A program made the position numbers and the translations under genes. From Bacilli bacterium (GTDB lineage Bacteria; Bacillota_I; Bacilli_A; RF39; UBA660), in NCBI GenBank assembly GCA_017887425.1, contig JAGHHZ010000020.1:1-62007 (forward strand): a DNA stretch of 62,007 nt. Direction: 5' to 3'. The notes beneath the pieces were generated by a model. The model searched no databases, had not been told where the DNA came from, and saw only the letters and a list, made by a program, of their open reading frames with translations. Position 1 is the stretch's first letter. Each line of letters opens with the position of its first letter. This document shows positions 33,137-49,986 of this stretch, one piece after another.

Positions 33137-34357
33137 ATGGGATTTATTAAAGCTTTTGCAGGTTCACTAGGAGGAACTTTTGCAGATCAATGGAAAGATT
33201 TTTATGCACCAAGACAAGACATTCCTGAAACAGCTGCTTTATTTCAAGCAGTACCACAAGGTGAGAATGCTGGACGTGGAGAAAATACTAAAGGTAGTGA
33301 AAACATAATTAGTAATGGTAGTAAAATTATTGTGCCAGAAGGAACTGCCTTAATTACTATTCAAGATGGAGCAATTACAGGATGTATTGCTGAACCGGGA
33401 GGATTTATTTTTAATTCAGAAGACCCTAACTCACAATCTATGTTTGCAGGTGATGGTATCTTTGGTCAAACTATTAAACAAACTTGGGAAAGATTTAAAT
33501 TTGGTGGTCAACCGGGTTCTCAACAATTAGCATTTTATGTTAATTTGAAAGAAATACCAAATAATAAATTTGGAACTCAATCAGAAATATATTGGGATGA
33601 TGCTTATTTTGGTACACAAGTAGGATGTGTAACAAGAGGTACTTATACTTTAAAAATAGTGGATCCATTATTGTTTGTTAAAAATTTTGTACCAGCTAAA
33701 TATGTACAACCAGGGGCTCCAGCATTTGATTTTGCTGATATGGATAATGATGCAGGAACACAATTATTTAATGAAGTTGTAAGTACTTTATCTGCTGCAT
33801 TTTCTAATTATACAAACGATCCAAGTAAAGGAAATCGTATATCTAAAATTCAAGGTGATCAAATCGGTTTTGCACAAGCAATGGCTAAAGCTGTTGAAGA
33901 TGCATATCAATGGAAATCATCTCGTGGTCTTGAAATTGTCAAAACAGCTATTCTTGCTATCGAATATGACGATGATACTAAAGCATTAATGAGTGATGTT
34001 AAGAAAGCTGATGCTTTATCTGGTGCTCGTGGCAATGCATTTATGCAACAAGCAGCTGCTCGTGGAATTCAATCAGCTGGTGAAAACGGTGGTGGAGCTG
34101 GTATGGCTTTCATGGGAATGGGTATGAATGCTGCTGGCGGTATGATGGGTGCAATGCAACAACAACCAACACAATCAAGCTATCAGCCAGCATTTGGTCA
34201 AACAAATCAACAACCACAACCAAATCAAGCAAATCAACAACAAGCCACTACACAAGATCCAACAACTAAATTGTTAGAAATGAAAAAACTTCTTGATGCT
34301 GGAGCAATTACTCAAGAAGATTATGACAAAATAAAAGCACAATTATTGGGGTTATAA
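33137..34357 (+). CDS. SPFH-like (YdjI/virion-core-like) protein with Gln-rich linker and C-terminal SHOCT motif
   Basis: ISNGSKIIVPEG, KEIPNNKFGT, KKLLDAGAITQEDYDKIKAQLL. Confidence 0.85.
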   Translation: MGFIKAFAGSLGGTFADQWKDFYAPRQDIPETAALFQAVPQGENAGRGENTKGSENIISNGSKIIVPEGTALITIQDGAITGCIAEPGGFIFNSEDPNSQSMFAGDGIFGQTIKQTWERFKFGGQPGSQQLAFYVNLKEIPNNKFGTQSEIYWDDAYFGTQVGCVTRGTYTLKIVDPLLFVKNFVPAKYVQPGAPAFDFADMDNDAGTQLFNEVVSTLSAAFSNYTNDPSKGNRISKIQGDQIGFAQAMAKAVEDAYQWKSSRGLEIVKTAILAIEYDDDTKALMSDVKKADALSGARGNAFMQQAAARGIQSAGENGGGAGMAFMGMGMNAAGGMMGAMQQQPTQSSYQPAFGQTNQQPQPNQANQQQATTQDPTTKLLEMKKLLDAGAITQEDYDKIKAQLLGL

Positions 34358-34360
34358 AAA

Positions 34361-35842
34361 ATGAAGGATAATTATAATGAAAATATAACTCCTTCAAATA
34401 ATCAAAATACAACAATAATTCAAACTGATACAGATGGTAAAATCGGTCAAGATAAATGTCCAAAATGTGGTGCGACAGATATTTCTATGAATACCAATAC
34501 TGGTCGTTTAAGATGTAACTTTTGTAGATACGAATTTGAACCAGAAAAACTAGAAGGTATGGATAATGATATCAGTCAATTACAAGGTCAAGTAATTGGC
34601 TCTGGAGCAACAGATATAGTTGCTGATACTGCTGATATTTTAACTTTTAAATGTAGTAGTTGTGGCGCTGAAGTTGTAATTGATACAAGTGAAGCTAGTC
34701 AAGCTCGTTGCCATTGGTGTAGAAATACTTTATCTATTAATCAACAAATACCAAACGGAAGCATTCCTGATGTTGTTTTACCATTTAAGATAAAAAAAGA
34801 AGATGCTAAAGTAGAAATCGAAAAGTTTGTTGGTAAAAGAAAGTTTTTTGCTCATCCTAAATTTAAAGAAGAATTTACTACAAATAATATTATGGGAGTT
34901 TATTTTCCTTATATGGTTGTCGATGTTAACGCTCATGCAAAGTTAGTCGGCCAAGGAGAACATTTAGTAAGAAGATATACAAGGGGTAGTGGAAATGATC
35001 GTAAGACATATTATGATGCTGATCTTTATGATGTCGAACGAGAATTTGATTTAACTATTGATGATTTGACTGTCGAGTCTAGTTCAGATAAATTAGATAA
35101 AAAATCCGATGATAAAACGACAAATGTTATTAATGCTATTATGCCGTTTGATACTGAAAATGCTGTAAAATGGAATGCTAATTATTTAAGAGGCTTTACA
35201 TCAGAAAAAAGAGATACTAATATTGAGCAATTAAAAGGGTTAGTAGAAACTCAATCAAAAGATATCACAAGATTTGCAGCTAATGAAACATTAGGACAAT
35301 ATGATCGTGGTGTCGCTTGGTCAAGTGAACAATTAGATGTTAAAGGTCAACAATGGAAAGCAGCCTATTTACCAGTGTGGTTATATAGCTATCAACAAGT
35401 AAAAGGAGATAAGAAGGTATTACATTATGTTGCTGTAAACGCTAGAACTAAAGAAGTGATGGGGAGTGTCCCAATCCATATGCCTAAATTATTTTTAATA
35501 TCTTTTCTAGTTGAATTGTTAGGTATAATCGCAATGTTATTTGTTGATTTTGATTATAGTTGGCTATTCTTATCAGCAGGATTTATTTACTTTTTTGTAA
35601 TATATGCTAAATATCGTAATCAAGGAGCAAGACATAAACATGAATTAGAAACAAAAAGAAATTATTCTAACTTGCGAAAAGTCGATAGGTTAGTTAAAAG
35701 AAGAACTGGTCTTACTAATTCGCGAATGTCTGGAGCTAATAACAATAGTGTTAGTGGTCAAAGTTTTGGAGAAAGATTTTTTGATAATTTAACTGATGAT
35801 CCAGCAGTTAATATAGTTAAAAACAATATTAATAAAAATTAA
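34361..35842 (+). CDS. Zn-ribbon membrane protein (YdjG-like)
   Basis: CPKCG, CNFC, CSSCG, CHWC; YLPVW; C-terminal TMs. Confidence 0.8.
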   Translation: MKDNYNENITPSNNQNTTIIQTDTDGKIGQDKCPKCGATDISMNTNTGRLRCNFCRYEFEPEKLEGMDNDISQLQGQVIGSGATDIVADTADILTFKCSSCGAEVVIDTSEASQARCHWCRNTLSINQQIPNGSIPDVVLPFKIKKEDAKVEIEKFVGKRKFFAHPKFKEEFTTNNIMGVYFPYMVVDVNAHAKLVGQGEHLVRRYTRGSGNDRKTYYDADLYDVEREFDLTIDDLTVESSSDKLDKKSDDKTTNVINAIMPFDTENAVKWNANYLRGFTSEKRDTNIEQLKGLVETQSKDITRFAANETLGQYDRGVAWSSEQLDVKGQQWKAAYLPVWLYSYQQVKGDKKVLHYVAVNARTKEVMGSVPIHMPKLFLISFLVELLGIIAMLFVDFDYSWLFLSAGFIYFFVIYAKYRNQGARHKHELETKRNYSNLRKVDRLVKRRTGLTNSRMSGANNNSVSGQSFGERFFDNLTDDPAVNIVKNNINKN

Positions 35843-35898
35843 AGTCAAACATTTAAGTTTGACTTTTTTTATATAAAAAACTAACAAAAATTGTTAGT

Positions 35899-36516
35899 TT
35901 AGATTTTGCGATACAAACCAATAGCTTTACCTAAAATTGTCACATTATTCATAATAAAAGGTTCCATTGTATCATTTTCTGGTTGTAATCTAATATAGCC
36001 ATCTTCCTTATAAAATGTTTTTAAAGTAACTTCATTATCTTCGGTCATTGCTACAACAATTTCACCATTATTAGCAGTATTTTTTCTTTCAACAATAACA
36101 ATATCGCCGTCTAAAATACCTGCATTAATCATACTTTCACCATCAACTAATAGAGTAAAAACTTCTTTGTTTTTTGGAATTAGATAAGAAGGTAAACTAA
36201 AAAATTCATCTGGTCTTTCAATTGCTTCAATTGGATTACCAGCGGTAATTTTACCTAATAGAGGAACTTCTGTAATTAGTTCATTTTTAACTTCATATTC
36301 ATTATCAACCAAAATTTCAATCGTTCTATTTTTACTGTCTTCTTTTCTAATATATCCTTTTTTTTCTAAATTATTTAAATGTACTTGAACGGTTGCAGTA
36401 CTTGATAGATCCATTTCTTTACATAATTCTCTAACTGTTGGTGCATATCCGTGCTTGACAATATACTGTTTAATTTTGTCTAATAGTTTTTCTTGCTGAT
36501 TAGTAAGTTTTTCCAT
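35899..36516 (-). CDS. lexA: SOS repressor LexA
   Basis: PTVRELC, GKITAG cleavage site, GESMINAGI, VTLK. Confidence 0.96.
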   Translation of the reverse strand: MEKLTNQQEKLLDKIKQYIVKHGYAPTVRELCKEMDLSSTATVQVHLNNLEKKGYIRKEDSKNRTIEILVDNEYEVKNELITEVPLLGKITAGNPIEAIERPDEFFSLPSYLIPKNKEVFTLLVDGESMINAGILDGDIVIVERKNTANNGEIVVAMTEDNEVTLKTFYKEDGYIRLQPENDTMEPFIMNNVTILGKAIGLYRKI

Positions 36517-36545: not shown

Positions 36546-36633
36546 ATTTTAACACACAAATATACATTTGTCAAACAAATTTTCGGTTTTTAATCAAAAA
36601 ACGCTTGACACGAATTTATGTTCGTGATATGAT
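36546..36633. promoter_or_regulatory. Divergent sigma-A promoters with SOS-box-like operators
   Basis: Minus: TTGACA(36574-69)-N17-TAAAAT with CAAAT-ATAC-ATTTG in the spacer; plus: TTGACA(36605)-N17-TATGAT with CGAAT-TTAT-GTTCG in the spacer; CAAAC-AAAT-TTTCG between them. Confidence 0.8.
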
Positions 36634-36656
36634 TGAATCATGAAAGGAATGGTGCT

Positions 36657-36845
36657 ATGGAATATTATACGATTAATGACATCAAAATTTTAACGGGATA
36701 TAATGAAAAGCAAATACGACTGATAATTAAAAAGCTAAACGACGAAGTGCTAGAAAAATATAAAAACAATAAAATAAAACCGTTATTATTTGTAGATAAG
36801 ATTGAAAAAAATTATTTTTTAAAAAGAATGGAGATTGAATTATGA
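36657..36845 (+). CDS. Small HTH-like protein (DUF3173/excisionase-like), LexA-divergent
   Basis: YYTINDIKILTGYNEKQIRLIIKKLN; RBS GAAAGGA. Confidence 0.6.
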   Translation: MEYYTINDIKILTGYNEKQIRLIIKKLNDEVLEKYKNNKIKPLLFVDKIEKNYFLKRMEIEL

Positions 36846-36982
36846 AAGAAATGTTAAAAAGTAAAACTATTATTGCCTTTATTGTTATTGTCTTAGGACT
36901 TGCTTTAATAAGTACTCCTAGTACCAAACTAGAAAATAATCAAGAATTTAATGAAGAACATATTTCTGCTAACTTAAAATAA
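36842..36982 (+). CDS. 46-aa single-TM peptide, candidate SOS cell-division inhibitor (not in ORF track)
   Basis: MKEMLKSKTIIAFIVIVLGLALISTPSTKLENNQEFNEEHISANLK; ATGA overlap with the upstream gene. Confidence 0.65.
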   Translation: MKEMLKSKTIIAFIVIVLGLALISTPSTKLENNQEFNEEHISANLK

Positions 36983-37001
36983 CTTTAGAATACATCTAAA
37001 G

Positions 37002-37427
37002 TTATTTTGCTATTTTACTAGGAAAAGGAATTATTTTTTTTACCTTCGTTTCTTCATCATAAACATAATGATATAAAGATTGAATAATACTTATCATTTG
37101 TTCTTCTGTTAAGTTAGTTAAATAAAACAACGCTTGAACTTTACTAACTTTTTTGTCTAATAAATAAAAGTTAGGAAAATCAAATTGAATTTCAGTTATA
37201 ACTTCAGTAACAGTTGTTTTTTTACCTCGTTTATGTTTATTAGTTTGAAATAAAAAATGAGTTGGTAAATTATTTTTTTCCAATTCCTTTAAAATTAAAC
37301 TATTAACTGCATAATTTTCTTTATACTTTCGATAAATAGTAGGAAAAACATTTTTTAAAAATATTTGCATCATTTTGTCGTCGTCTTCAAATCGCAGTTC
37401 TTCAATTGGTATTAAATAATATTTCAT
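37002..37427 (-). CDS. Hypothetical protein
   Basis: 141-aa ORF, RBS AAGGAG. Confidence 0.65.
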   Translation of the reverse strand: MKYYLIPIEELRFEDDDKMMQIFLKNVFPTIYRKYKENYAVNSLILKELEKNNLPTHFLFQTNKHKRGKKTTVTEVITEIQFDFPNFYLLDKKVSKVQALFYLTNLTEEQMISIIQSLYHYVYDEETKVKKIIPFPSKIAK

Positions 37428-37435
37428 AATTCTCC

Positions 37436-38038
37436 TTAATTAAGTATTTTTTTAATTTCTTTTTTAGCTTTGCTTTTAGCTTTTCTAAATACTTTTTTTC
37501 TAATTCTTTTACTAAAAATACAAACAATTATAATAATAATCAAAACTATTCCGCCAATAATATAGTAAGTATGATAAGAAGTATCTTGCCACATTCCTAC
37601 TTGATTATTTTTAGCTATTAATTCACTTGCTTCTAATGTTGTTAAATATTTATAATCGCCATAAATATAATCAACTTGTCCTAAACCTTGTTGGATTATT
37701 AAATCTTGTAATAATTTATCATCGACAAATACCCAAACTAAATGTCTGTCGTATTTATCTAACTTATCACTATTTTCATCATATTCTATTTCGATTTTAT
37801 TAGCATTTGTTAATAAATCACAAGTATAATTGCTAGCTTCTTTACCGAACGGTTCGATTTCATTGGTTGATTCAGGAGTGTCGATTGCTAAAAATCTTGT
37901 CTTTATTTCTTCACCATCCAGAATAAACCATGCTGTATCACCATCGACACATTTGCTTAAAGTGACCTCGATTTTCTCACTTGCTTCAGCATTTGTTATA
38001 AATAACAAACTTATTATTATTCCAAATATTATTTTCAC
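37436..38038 (-). CDS. Thermonuclease (SNase-like) with signal peptide and C-terminal TM
   Basis: CVDGDT, RFLAIDTPE, DKYDRHLVWV. Confidence 0.9.
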   Translation of the reverse strand: MKIIFGIIISLLFITNAEASEKIEVTLSKCVDGDTAWFILDGEEIKTRFLAIDTPESTNEIEPFGKEASNYTCDLLTNANKIEIEYDENSDKLDKYDRHLVWVFVDDKLLQDLIIQQGLGQVDYIYGDYKYLTTLEASELIAKNNQVGMWQDTSYHTYYIIGGIVLIIIIIVCIFSKRIRKKVFRKAKSKAKKEIKKILN

Positions 38039-38124
38039 ACTAACCACCAATAACATTATATCACTAAAACTTTACAAATAATCGTAAAAATGCTATAATT
38101 ACACAGTTGATTGGGAGTGGAATT

Positions 38125-48700: not shown

Positions 48701-48780
48701 AAGCGAAAAAATATTCGCTTTTTTCTTTACAAGCTAATTTTCTTTTGATAAAATTTTATTAGATGAGGTGGTGAATTAAA

Positions 48781-49986
48781 ATGGAAAGAATTATATTTCA
48801 CATCGATGTTAACAATGCCTTTTTATCATGGACAGCACTTGATTTACTTAATCAAGGATATAAATATGATATAAGAGACTCGTATGCTGTTATTGGTGGT
48901 GATCCTAAAGCGAGAAAAGGAATTGTTTTAGCTAAATCTAACGCTTGTAAAAAACTTGGTATTTATACATCGATGACTTTATATGAAGCAAAGAAAAAAT
49001 GTTCTGTTTTAAAAATATATCCCCCTAATTATAAGTTTTATAGTGAAATGAGTAATAAATTATTTGATTTGTTAAGTAAATATACCCCTGATATTGAAAT
49101 TGCCAGTATCGACGAATGCTATCTAGATTATGGCAAAGTAAAAAGTTTATATGGCGATGAATATGAATTTGCTACTAAATTACAAAAAGAAATTTACGAA
49201 ACTTTAAAATTTACCGTCAATATTGGAATCGCTAATAATAAATTGTGCGCCAAAATGGCTAGTGATTTTAGTAAGCCAAACAAAATTCATACTTTATATG
49301 CTAATGAAGTTGAATCTAAAATGTATCCGTTACCGATTAATGACTTATTTATGATTGGTAAAAAAACAAGTGAAAAACTAATGAATCTAGGTATTAAGAC
49401 AATCGGCGATTTAGCTAATTTTCCTTATGATAAATTATATCCTCATTTTAAAAATCAAGCTAAATTTTTAATTAATCAAGCAAGAGGAATTGATGATAGC
49501 ATTGTCGATAGTGAAACATTTATTCCAAAAGGAATCAGTAATGAAATAACACTAGAAAAAGATATTACGATAAAAGAAGAGTTATATCCTTATTTGATGA
49601 GTATATGCGAAGCTATTAGTGTTAGATTAAGAAGACAAAAGAAATATGCAATGGTTATTTGTGTTATTTTGAAAGATAATTATTTTAAAAGAAAATCCCA
49701 TCAAAAAAAATTAGTTAATGCTACCAATGTCACAAGTGATATTTATAAATTTGCTAAAGAAATTTTAGATGAGATGTGGAATGATGAAAGAATCAGACTA
49801 ATTGGAGTAAGATTAGATAAATTAGTTGATAATGTTATGTATCAAGCATCTTTATTTGATAGTGATAATAATATTGAAGAATCGAAAGTCGATGTTGTTA
49901 TCGATAATCTAAAACAAAAATATGGTAACAAAATTATTACTAAAGCTAGTTTGAAAAATGATAAAAAACAGTTTAAAGGATTATAA
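48781..49986 (+). CDS. dinB: DNA polymerase IV
   Basis: HIDVNNAF, SIDECYLD, CAKMASD..KP, RLIGV. Confidence 0.93.
   Translation: MERIIFHIDVNNAFLSWTALDLLNQGYKYDIRDSYAVIGGDPKARKGIVLAKSNACKKLGIYTSMTLYEAKKKCSVLKIYPPNYKFYSEMSNKLFDLLSKYTPDIEIASIDECYLDYGKVKSLYGDEYEFATKLQKEIYETLKFTVNIGIANNKLCAKMASDFSKPNKIHTLYANEVESKMYPLPINDLFMIGKKTSEKLMNLGIKTIGDLANFPYDKLYPHFKNQAKFLINQARGIDDSIVDSETFIPKGISNEITLEKDITIKEELYPYLMSICEAISVRLRRQKKYAMVICVILKDNYFKRKSHQKKLVNATNVTSDIYKFAKEILDEMWNDERIRLIGVRLDKLVDNVMYQASLFDSDNNIEESKVDVVIDNLKQKYGNKIITKASLKNDKKQFKGL

Follow-up and report, generated by a model that had tools for sequence, protein, structure and literature searches.

The question raised by this locus is which function a gut bacterium of the order RF39 expresses from the promoter that faces its SOS repressor gene. 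The window, which is the whole stretch of 62,007 nucleotides that was analysed, belongs to a metagenome-assembled genome (MAG) of 1.24 Mb with a GC content of 26.6%, and all genomes compared with it were also MAGs. In the window, lexA is transcribed divergently from a small operon of two genes, here designated gene A and gene B, which code for a helix-turn-helix (HTH)-like protein of 62 amino acids and a membrane peptide of 46 amino acids, respectively. In the best explanation, an uncultured RF39-type bacterium of the genus CAG-878 has its core SOS locus here. Gene B is considered, with slightly better than even confidence and by analogy, to be an SOS division inhibitor of the kind represented by YneA and SosA. 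In addition, homologues of gene B were identified in the early operons of temperate phages, once directly behind a relative of gene A; this relationship is new and, judged by the sequence matches, real.

Candidatus Faecisoma is the name given to the GTDB genus CAG-878, which belongs to the family CAG-822 in the order RF39 (PMC8035907). The hosts found at matches to the gene B profile were uncultured gut MAGs of Bacilli or Tenericutes, Acholeplasma sp. CAG:878, Candidatus Faecisoma merdavium and Candidatus Pelethosoma.

The divergent promoters and their LexA boxes

The locus comprises the following features, with positions in the window:

35899 to 36516, minus strand: lexA, SOS repressor of 205 amino acids (TIGR00498 at 229 bits against a cut-off of 110.95; LexA_DNA_bind and Peptidase_S24 domains)
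36546 to 36574, minus strand: lexA promoter (-35 TTGACA at 36574 to 36569, 17-nt spacer, extended -10 TGtTAAAAT, -10 at 36551 to 36546)
36572 to 36585, minus strand: LexA box 2, CGAAAATTTGTTTG, overlapping the -35 of lexA, which would give autoregulation
36605 to 36633, plus strand: operon promoter (-35 TTGACA at 36605 to 36610, 17-nt spacer at 36611 to 36627, extended -10 TGaTATGAT at 36625 to 36633)
36611 to 36624, plus strand: LexA box 1, CGAATTTATGTTCG, filling the -35/-10 spacer of the operon promoter
36657 to 36845, plus strand: gene A, 62 amino acids, predicted cytoplasmic HTH-like protein, with a ribosome-binding site and an ATGA overlap with gene B
36842 to 36982, plus strand: gene B, 46 amino acids, a real open reading frame with GGAG 8 nt before its ATG, the start overlapping the stop of gene A (ATGA)
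36981 to 37009, plus strand: weak terminator hairpin, rich in AT, AACTTTAGA-ATACA-TCTAAAGTT, with a T-run behind it, at the end of the operon

The identity of LexA is certain on sequence grounds. Both Pfam domains, PF01726 and PF00717, are present, so that the protein comprises a DNA-binding domain and an S24 autopeptidase. The gene is present in a single copy in the genome, and a ribosome-binding site, AAGGAGG, lies 7 nt ahead of the ATG at 36516. Longer versions of lexA (ATG at 36567) and of gene A (TTG at 36633) were rejected, because these starts lie upstream of or inside the promoters, and because alignments to the family models begin at the shorter starts.

The intergenic region between lexA and gene A consists of 140 nt and contains two divergent promoters of the sigma-A type. 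Both promoters agree with the consensus at 11 of 12 positions, both carry the TG motif, and they were the top two hits in a consensus scan of 1.7 kb. The consensus of the LexA (Cheo) box in Firmicutes is CGAAC-N4-GTTCG, which is matched by CGAATTTATGTTCG of box 1; the box lies inside an extended palindrome, CACGAA...TTCGTG, at 36609 to 36626. When 19 orthologous intergenic regions were aligned, the two promoters and the arms of the two boxes proved invariant (the lexA promoter invariant or nearly so), and the four central bases of the boxes varied freely. Invariant arms with a variable centre are, on this alignment, typical of an operator footprint. The arms of box 2 were also kept in relatives which contain gene B and lack gene A.

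The original prediction had described an SOS box in the promoter spacer followed by two open reading frames, and all of these elements are present as described. Its proposal that the operon is divergent from lexA and controlled by a LexA box agrees with the comparative data, since a TTGAC promoter with the box in its spacer, together with a divergent lexA, was identified in all 26 GTDB species carrying gene B. The second LexA box, CGAAAATTTGTTTG, is an addition to that prediction.

At 26.6% GC, the nine specified bases of the box have a probability of about 7.5e-7 per position, and the strict pattern occurs four times in 1.24 Mb, with about two occurrences expected. Five of the seven genomic sites of the relaxed pattern CGAA-N5-GTTYG are located in promoters, namely those of lexA, of the A-B operon and of the three following genes or operons:

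G000:C5:61789-61802: LexA box of recA, just upstream of the -35
G000:C25:21347-21360: LexA box in the promoter spacer of a gene for an AAA_21/AAA_15 ATPase, which is followed by uvrA
G000:C14:7864-7877: LexA box in the promoter spacer of a gene for an ORF6N-domain protein

In the recA promoters of the genus, C[GA]AA-N6-TTCG was found in 28 of 28 cases at a fixed distance upstream of the -35, again with a variable centre. Because of the promoter locations, the operator-like conservation and the 28 recA promoters, the motif is read as the LexA operator of this lineage, and on the same sequence grounds the A-B operon is taken to be part of a small SOS regulon consisting of lexA, recA, the uvrA operon, the ORF6N gene and A-B itself. 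A related site, CGAAAAAATATTCG, is located at 48704 to 48717, 64 nt before dinB (48781 to 49986, a Y-family polymerase with IMS domains). This site also forms the core of a terminator-like hairpin, AAAAGCGAA...TTCGCTTTT, of the preceding gene, so that its role may be that of an operator, a terminator or both.

Some further elements of the transcription unit were observed. Between the -10 and gene A lies an 18-nt leader, CATGAAAGGAATGGTGCT (36639 to 36656), which hardly varies among the 19 species: most of them show G/A or G/T changes at two or three sites, and the most diverged species differs more; this conservation exceeds the need of a ribosome-binding site alone. The stem of the terminator is kept and its loop is variable among the species with gene A, and a G+C-based terminator scan gave no call for the hairpin at 36981 to 37009. 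No Rfam match was obtained at the locus. A promoter-like sequence within gene A, ATGACA-17-TATAAT at 36676 to 36704, was taken as a chance occurrence in AT-rich DNA, since the Tyr-Asn codons behind it vary and it is therefore not conserved.

The 46-residue peptide encoded by gene B

The peptide encoded by gene B starts with a positively charged N-terminus, MKEMLKSK (+2), followed by a hydrophobic core at residues 9 to 24 with a mean hydropathy of 3.17 and by a tail with a charge of -2. The tail comprises 20 to 24 residues in the family, is conserved, and contains a C-terminal Y-[IV]-S-x-N-L-K motif ending in NLK. In the AlphaFold model, a helix spans residues 2 to 24 and the acidic tail is disordered, and the predicted topology is that of a single membrane helix with the N-terminus inside and the C-terminus outside. 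With a median ratio of nonsynonymous to synonymous substitution rates (dN/dS) of 0.40 and substitutions decreasing from codon position 3 to 1 to 2, gene B is, by these sequence measures, under purifying selection. The view of the original prediction that the 46-residue open reading frame codes for a conserved single-helix membrane peptide is upheld by this ratio and by the predicted helix. The median synonymous rate (dS) across 19 species was 0.46 for gene B, half of the 0.94 found for the adjacent gene A; this lower value could be caused by constraint at the RNA level, by codon bias or by noise due to the short length.

The short core also bears on a different explanation, in which gene B codes for a secreted pre-peptide whose N-terminus serves as a signal sequence and whose C-terminal 19 to 22 residues are released as a DNA-damage signal. 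A core of 16 residues, a Ser/Thr/Pro-rich segment (STPST) behind it and the conserved Y-[IV]-S-x-N-L-K would suit such a peptide. However, a consistent small-x-small cleavage motif is missing across the family, with IGSRQAK or IGGSNNK at this point in species that contain only gene B, and the N-terminus and the helix are the best conserved parts, also when host and phage copies are compared, whereas a signal peptide that is discarded would not usually be so well kept. A secreted pre-peptide is thus regarded as very improbable.

The genomic position of gene B fits its proposed assignment to the SOS division inhibitors, a class represented by YneA, SosA, ChiZ and DivS. Gene B is present in a single copy and adjoins lexA in 26 of 26 relatives carrying it (22 in the genus plus four other genera), and its carriers span five of the eight genera of the family; conservation opposite lexA in related genomes, which had been named as a check of the original prediction, was thereby found. 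Gene A is absent from eight of the 26 GTDB species and from other genera, so that lexA faces gene B directly there. On this distribution, gene B is the ancestral partner of lexA; it is taken to be the functionally central product of the operon. In several genomes the next gene is tkt, coding for transketolase, which places gene B between lexA and tkt in related genera, and in a Bacilli genome that is less closely related, a DUF896 (YnzC) gene stands between lexA and tkt. This slot matches the gene order in B. subtilis, lexA-yneA-yneB-ynzC-tkt. In other genera, this slot, again behind a promoter of this kind, is taken by similar-sized single-helix peptides without sequence relationship to gene B. 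SOS division inhibitors of Gram-positive bacteria share a conserved position and a single membrane helix and have little sequence similarity (PMC6851548).

Two inhibitors allow a direct comparison. Like gene B, SosA from S. aureus (PMC6851548) is small, has no LysM domain and is encoded divergently from lexA, and it is a membrane protein with a single helix, as predicted for gene B. SosA is controlled by LexA and has an extracellular C-terminal part, for which the LexA box and the predicted topology of gene B suggest the same; the extreme C-terminus of SosA is conserved and tied to its removal by CtpA, and the C-terminus of gene B is conserved too. In contrast, SosA comprises 77 amino acids, gene B shares no detectable sequence similarity with it, and only gene B is preceded by a phage-derived gene in this clade and has phage-borne homologues. 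YneA from B. subtilis and Listeria (PMC13396833) occupies the same slot as gene B, divergent from lexA on the tkt side. It is encoded by the first gene of a small SOS operon with additional genes (yneB, ynzC) and carries an N-terminal membrane helix, as predicted for gene B. However, YneA consists of about 100 amino acids and needs a peptidoglycan-binding LysM domain, whereas gene B has a tail of about 22 residues without LysM, and the companions of YneA are the resolvase-like YneB and the DUF896 protein YnzC instead of a phage HTH-like protein.

The same small size, hydrophobicity and charged tail, under the control of a LexA box, would also be expected of a membrane toxin of the TisB/DinQ or Fst type that is induced in the SOS response. 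Such a toxin would depolarise or perturb the membrane and lead to growth arrest or persistence, and in phages gene B would serve for host shut-off or addiction. In E. coli, LexA controls the membrane peptides TisB and DinQ, and the presence of gene B homologues on mobile elements is typical of toxins. On the other hand, no conserved antisense promoter or RNA element was identified opposite or downstream of gene B and no Rfam match was obtained, although an antisense RNA could act in trans; the downstream sequence varies among the species containing only gene B; and the fixed yneA/sosA slot together with the conserved tail of 20 to 24 residues suits the checkpoint class better. A membrane toxin is the main alternative to a division inhibitor, and in itself an unlikely one.

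For the division inhibitor, a mechanism can be outlined from better characterized systems. YneA blocks septal wall synthesis by placing its membrane helix on transmembrane segment 7 (TM7) of FtsW (PMC13396833), and AlphaFold 3 modelling suggests that SosA also docks on FtsW (PMC13396833). Both inhibitors are cleared by proteases of the CtpA type (PMC13396833, PMC6851548). The genome analysed here encodes three SEDS (shape, elongation, division and sporulation) proteins of the FtsW/RodA type and one C-terminal processing protease of the CtpA-type S41 family, and by analogy the mechanism would therefore be feasible in this organism.

Starting from the operators, promoters, genes, synteny, selection and phage homologues found in silico, one may infer as follows how LexA binds, how the operon is induced, how the peptide is oriented, what it targets in the divisome and what gene A does. 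In the undamaged cell, LexA bound to box 2 at the -35 of lexA would provide autoregulation, and LexA bound to box 1 in the spacer would block RNA polymerase at the divergent promoter. After DNA damage, self-cleavage of LexA stimulated by RecA would free the operon promoter, giving rise to a short-leader mRNA which encodes gene A and then, by translational coupling at the ATGA overlap, gene B. The gene B peptide, with its short basic cytoplasmic N-terminus, its one membrane helix and its acidic extracellular tail of about 22 residues, would enter the membrane and dock by the helix on the septal peptidoglycan synthase (a SEDS protein of the FtsW type with its penicillin-binding protein), so that septation would pause during repair. 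Afterwards, the CtpA-type S41 protease would remove the peptide, perhaps by reading its conserved C-terminus. Gene A, an HTH-like protein probably derived from the early operon of a temperate phage and inserted in one sub-clade, would be co-induced with gene B, and temperate phages of the same hosts would use the same division brake after induction by means of the gene B homologues in their early operons.

Several points weigh against the assignment of gene B to the YneA/SosA kind. The hydrophobic stretch comprises only 16 residues, a length at the boundary between membrane anchors and signal peptides. In sequence, the peptide resembles neither YneA nor SosA nor any curated family, and neither a YneA model nor a LysM domain was found in it with Pfam and NCBIfam at E <= 1. 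Its best-conserved part consists of the cytoplasmic N-terminus and the helix, whereas the critical residues of SosA are extracellular and membrane-proximal. Three members of the genus (G003, G006 and G019) have lexA and no gene B, which is therefore dispensable there. Finally, the seven genomic occurrences of the relaxed box pattern equal the chance expectation, so that the weight of the motif comes from the location and conservation of its sites and not from the genome count.

In G019, G003 and G006 (loci L049, L050 and L046), neither gene A nor gene B is present, the gene opposite lexA codes for a secreted protein of about 460 amino acids, and only a degenerate autoregulatory box remains. 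In G010, lexA contains an in-frame TAA.

Gene A and the phage homologues of both genes

Gene A has been identified in 18 of the 26 GTDB species carrying gene B and is confined to a sub-clade whose LexA is at least 86% identical to that of the window. This distribution would be accounted for by one insertion event that placed gene A between the SOS promoter and gene B, and by comparison of the loci gene A is a later insertion and not an original part of the system. The original prediction, in which gene A preceded the peptide, thus holds for the window and for these 18 species, but not for the original operon, since eight of the 26 lack the gene. With a dN/dS of 0.22, gene A is strongly constrained and under purifying selection.

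No family was assigned to gene A with Pfam and NCBIfam at E <= 1. A profile search of 1.8 billion representative proteins revealed only 18 relatives, and the family is therefore tiny. The closer relatives that were examined show the same lexA-A-B arrangement wherever the contig extends far enough. The distant relatives are located in prophage early operons, just after a cro-like gene which faces a repressor of the CI type; in L062/L063 and L098 this repressor is of the S24 type. The distant relatives are:

P0057: in L062 and L063, the latter being the same prophage in another genome
P0060: in L098
P0062: in L100
P0061: on a contig of 980 bases (L099) without informative neighbours

P0057, P0060 and P0062 matched phrog_989 with E-values from 4e-11 to 5e-16, and the relatives linked to gene A by its profile gave E-values of 3.9e-11, 5.3e-16 and 1.5e-9. 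Gene A itself gave a weak match (E 0.0057) and appears on these sequence links to be a distant, diverged member of phrog_989, a small family of phage early operons to which no function has been assigned. The relatives in phrog_989 follow cro-like genes in prophages, whereas gene A is chromosomal, located beside lexA and under the control of a LexA box. The INPHARED phage collection contained no match to P0060 or to the phage homologue of gene B, and scans of IMG/VR with single phage relatives of gene A gave nothing; a mixed alignment of gene A was too diverse to serve as a query.

The original prediction had described gene A as a DUF3173- or excisionase-like regulator. Neither gene A nor its phage paralogue matched DUF3173 at E <= 1, and because no Pfam match was obtained, gene A is not assigned to DUF3173. 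A weak match of gene A to phrog_8896 (excisionase) was found at E 0.0054. The AlphaFold model (predicted local distance difference test, 80) shows the order beta-alpha-alpha...beta-alpha. A Foldseek search of the PDB with this model gave nothing significant (best E 1.5), and a search of BFVD gave weak matches to small phage HTH proteins (best E 0.03 to 0.09, template modelling scores of 0.64 to 0.77), with entries for PrtN and excisionase ranked further down. These matches indicate an excisionase-like HTH fold only weakly. As the most economical reading, gene A is most likely a co-induced DNA-binding accessory which might act as a second-tier regulator or modulator.

Behind every phage relative of gene A that was examined, a small single-helix peptide of 56 to 77 amino acids is encoded (L062:4287-4717, L099:388-748 and L100:4001-4346). 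In L062, L099 and L100 its start overlaps the gene ahead of it, which is not the case in L063. These peptides have no demonstrable homology to gene B (at most 11.6 bits), and the arrangement suggests a recurring pairing of an HTH protein with a membrane peptide.

Homologues of gene B itself were identified as well. In L098, the gene A relative is followed, with an ATGA overlap, by a peptide of 50 amino acids beginning MKEMLKSKSMLAFIF, which scored 30 bits against the host gene B profile, compared with 9.6 bits for the best of 200 shuffles. A version of 48 amino acids, MIEMLKSKTIILFVIMILG..., scored 43 to 44 bits, with shuffled controls reaching 10 bits at most, and occurs in three viral contigs of IMG/VR and in at least 28 protein clusters; the contigs whose context was read are phage-like. 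The phage homologues lie in early operons behind cro-like genes. Some contigs with the 48-residue homologue are 25 to 38 kb long. In the phage contexts examined, the gene B homologue is located between the lysogeny module, consisting of an integrase, an ImmA-type protease and an XRE repressor facing cro, and the replication genes, which include ERF, DnaB and DUF6291; in one context it follows the lysis cassette. Between host and phage copies, the N-terminus and the helix are kept and the tails differ. Under the name of a curated family, gene B was found neither in Pfam and NCBIfam (E <= 1) nor in PHROG, and a database of 5.8 billion proteins contained only 13 clusters of the gene B type, with no names attached. 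The description of the peptide as lineage-specific in the original prediction therefore needs to be qualified: unrelated peptides do fill the slot in other genera, but homologues are present in temperate phages.

A conserved protein of 84 amino acids precedes the phage gene B homologue in four loci (L101:3744-3998, L103:3744-3998, L134:2202-2456 and L136:5744-5998). It belongs to no Pfam or PHROG family, and its candidacy as a relative of gene A was dropped, since the comparison with the gene A family by hhalign gave a probability of 6%, which does not demonstrate homology.

No LexA boxes were identified in the phage early regions, where the gene B copies are under phage repressors. The repressors of such phages also respond to DNA damage. 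Small early phage proteins which stop division have been described, namely gp56 of the Bacillus phage SPO1 (bioRxiv 10.1101/2020.02.06.938217) and Kil of lambda (PMC3961180), and the phage homologues of gene B are likewise located in early operons. However, gp56 and Kil are not homologues of a host SOS gene, whereas the phage and host peptides of gene B form one family. The phage copies are compatible with a checkpoint function, because a division brake serves both the damaged host and the induced phage, as Kil and gp56 illustrate; they equally keep a toxin or a phage-specific function alive.

The phage-specific alternative holds that the A-B pair, or gene B alone, is mainly a viral module for superinfection exclusion, lysis timing or early lytic control by gene A, and that the host copy is domesticated or parasitic and uses LexA as its repressor. 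The distant relatives of gene A in prophage early operons, each followed by a small membrane peptide, would agree with this, as would the gene B homologues in at least 28 protein clusters, with phage-like contigs wherever the context was read, and the S24 repressor facing the early genes, which is the same layout in phage and host. Against this, several genera have gene B without gene A in a fixed place next to lexA, where the LexA operators are conserved and gene B is under purifying selection, which argues for a long-standing host function; the phage copies lack a LexA box; and no integrase or att-like remnants were found flanking the host locus, where the flanks consist of housekeeping genes. 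A mainly viral module is judged to be quite unlikely.

A more far-reaching proposal, which goes beyond the assignment of gene B as a division inhibitor of the host, is that it represents a DNA-damage checkpoint peptide common to host and virus. Temperate phages of RF39 bacteria would have acquired or supplied the brake and would express it from their early operons, so that the cell stays undivided during induction, and both copies would act on a shared membrane target through the conserved MxEMLKxK-helix region. Gene A would be a dedicated partner, which either activates genes at a second tier in the manner of PrtN or modulates the peptide or LexA, and which re-entered the host locus together with a phage-type B cassette. 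This proposal is tentative, and we regard it as doubtful.

Neighbouring genes and implications for RF39-type bacteria

Upstream of lexA, the region 33137 to 35842 contains genes for an SPFH/Band-7 protein with a SHOCT tail (406 amino acids) and for a protein of 493 amino acids with two zinc ribbons and C-terminal membrane helices; these genes end at a strong bidirectional terminator (35841 to 35866). On the other side, the region 37002 to 38056, on the minus strand and convergent with the operon, codes for a protein of 141 amino acids without a family and for a nuclease of the staphylococcal nuclease type whose N-terminus resembles a signal sequence and whose C-terminus contains a membrane segment. 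The genes for these two proteins adjoin the locus in several, not all, species.

A small membrane protein encoded divergently from lexA is a well-known kind of system in Firmicutes and Actinobacteria, so that the basic finding comes as no surprise. Bacteria of the RF39 type, which have reduced genomes, are common in the gut, and we know of none with a characterized cell cycle or DNA-damage response. For these bacteria, the locus defines a LexA operator and a minimal regulon, and it provides a candidate for the checkpoint effector. If the assignment is true, gene B, with 46 residues and no LysM domain, would be among the smallest such effectors, and septation would be arrested by little beyond a membrane helix, which would make the peptide a compact natural probe for the inhibition of FtsW and other SEDS proteins. 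The part worth following up is the peptide link between host and phage, since the phage-borne homologues make it testable whether phages use the SOS checkpoint peptide of their own host.

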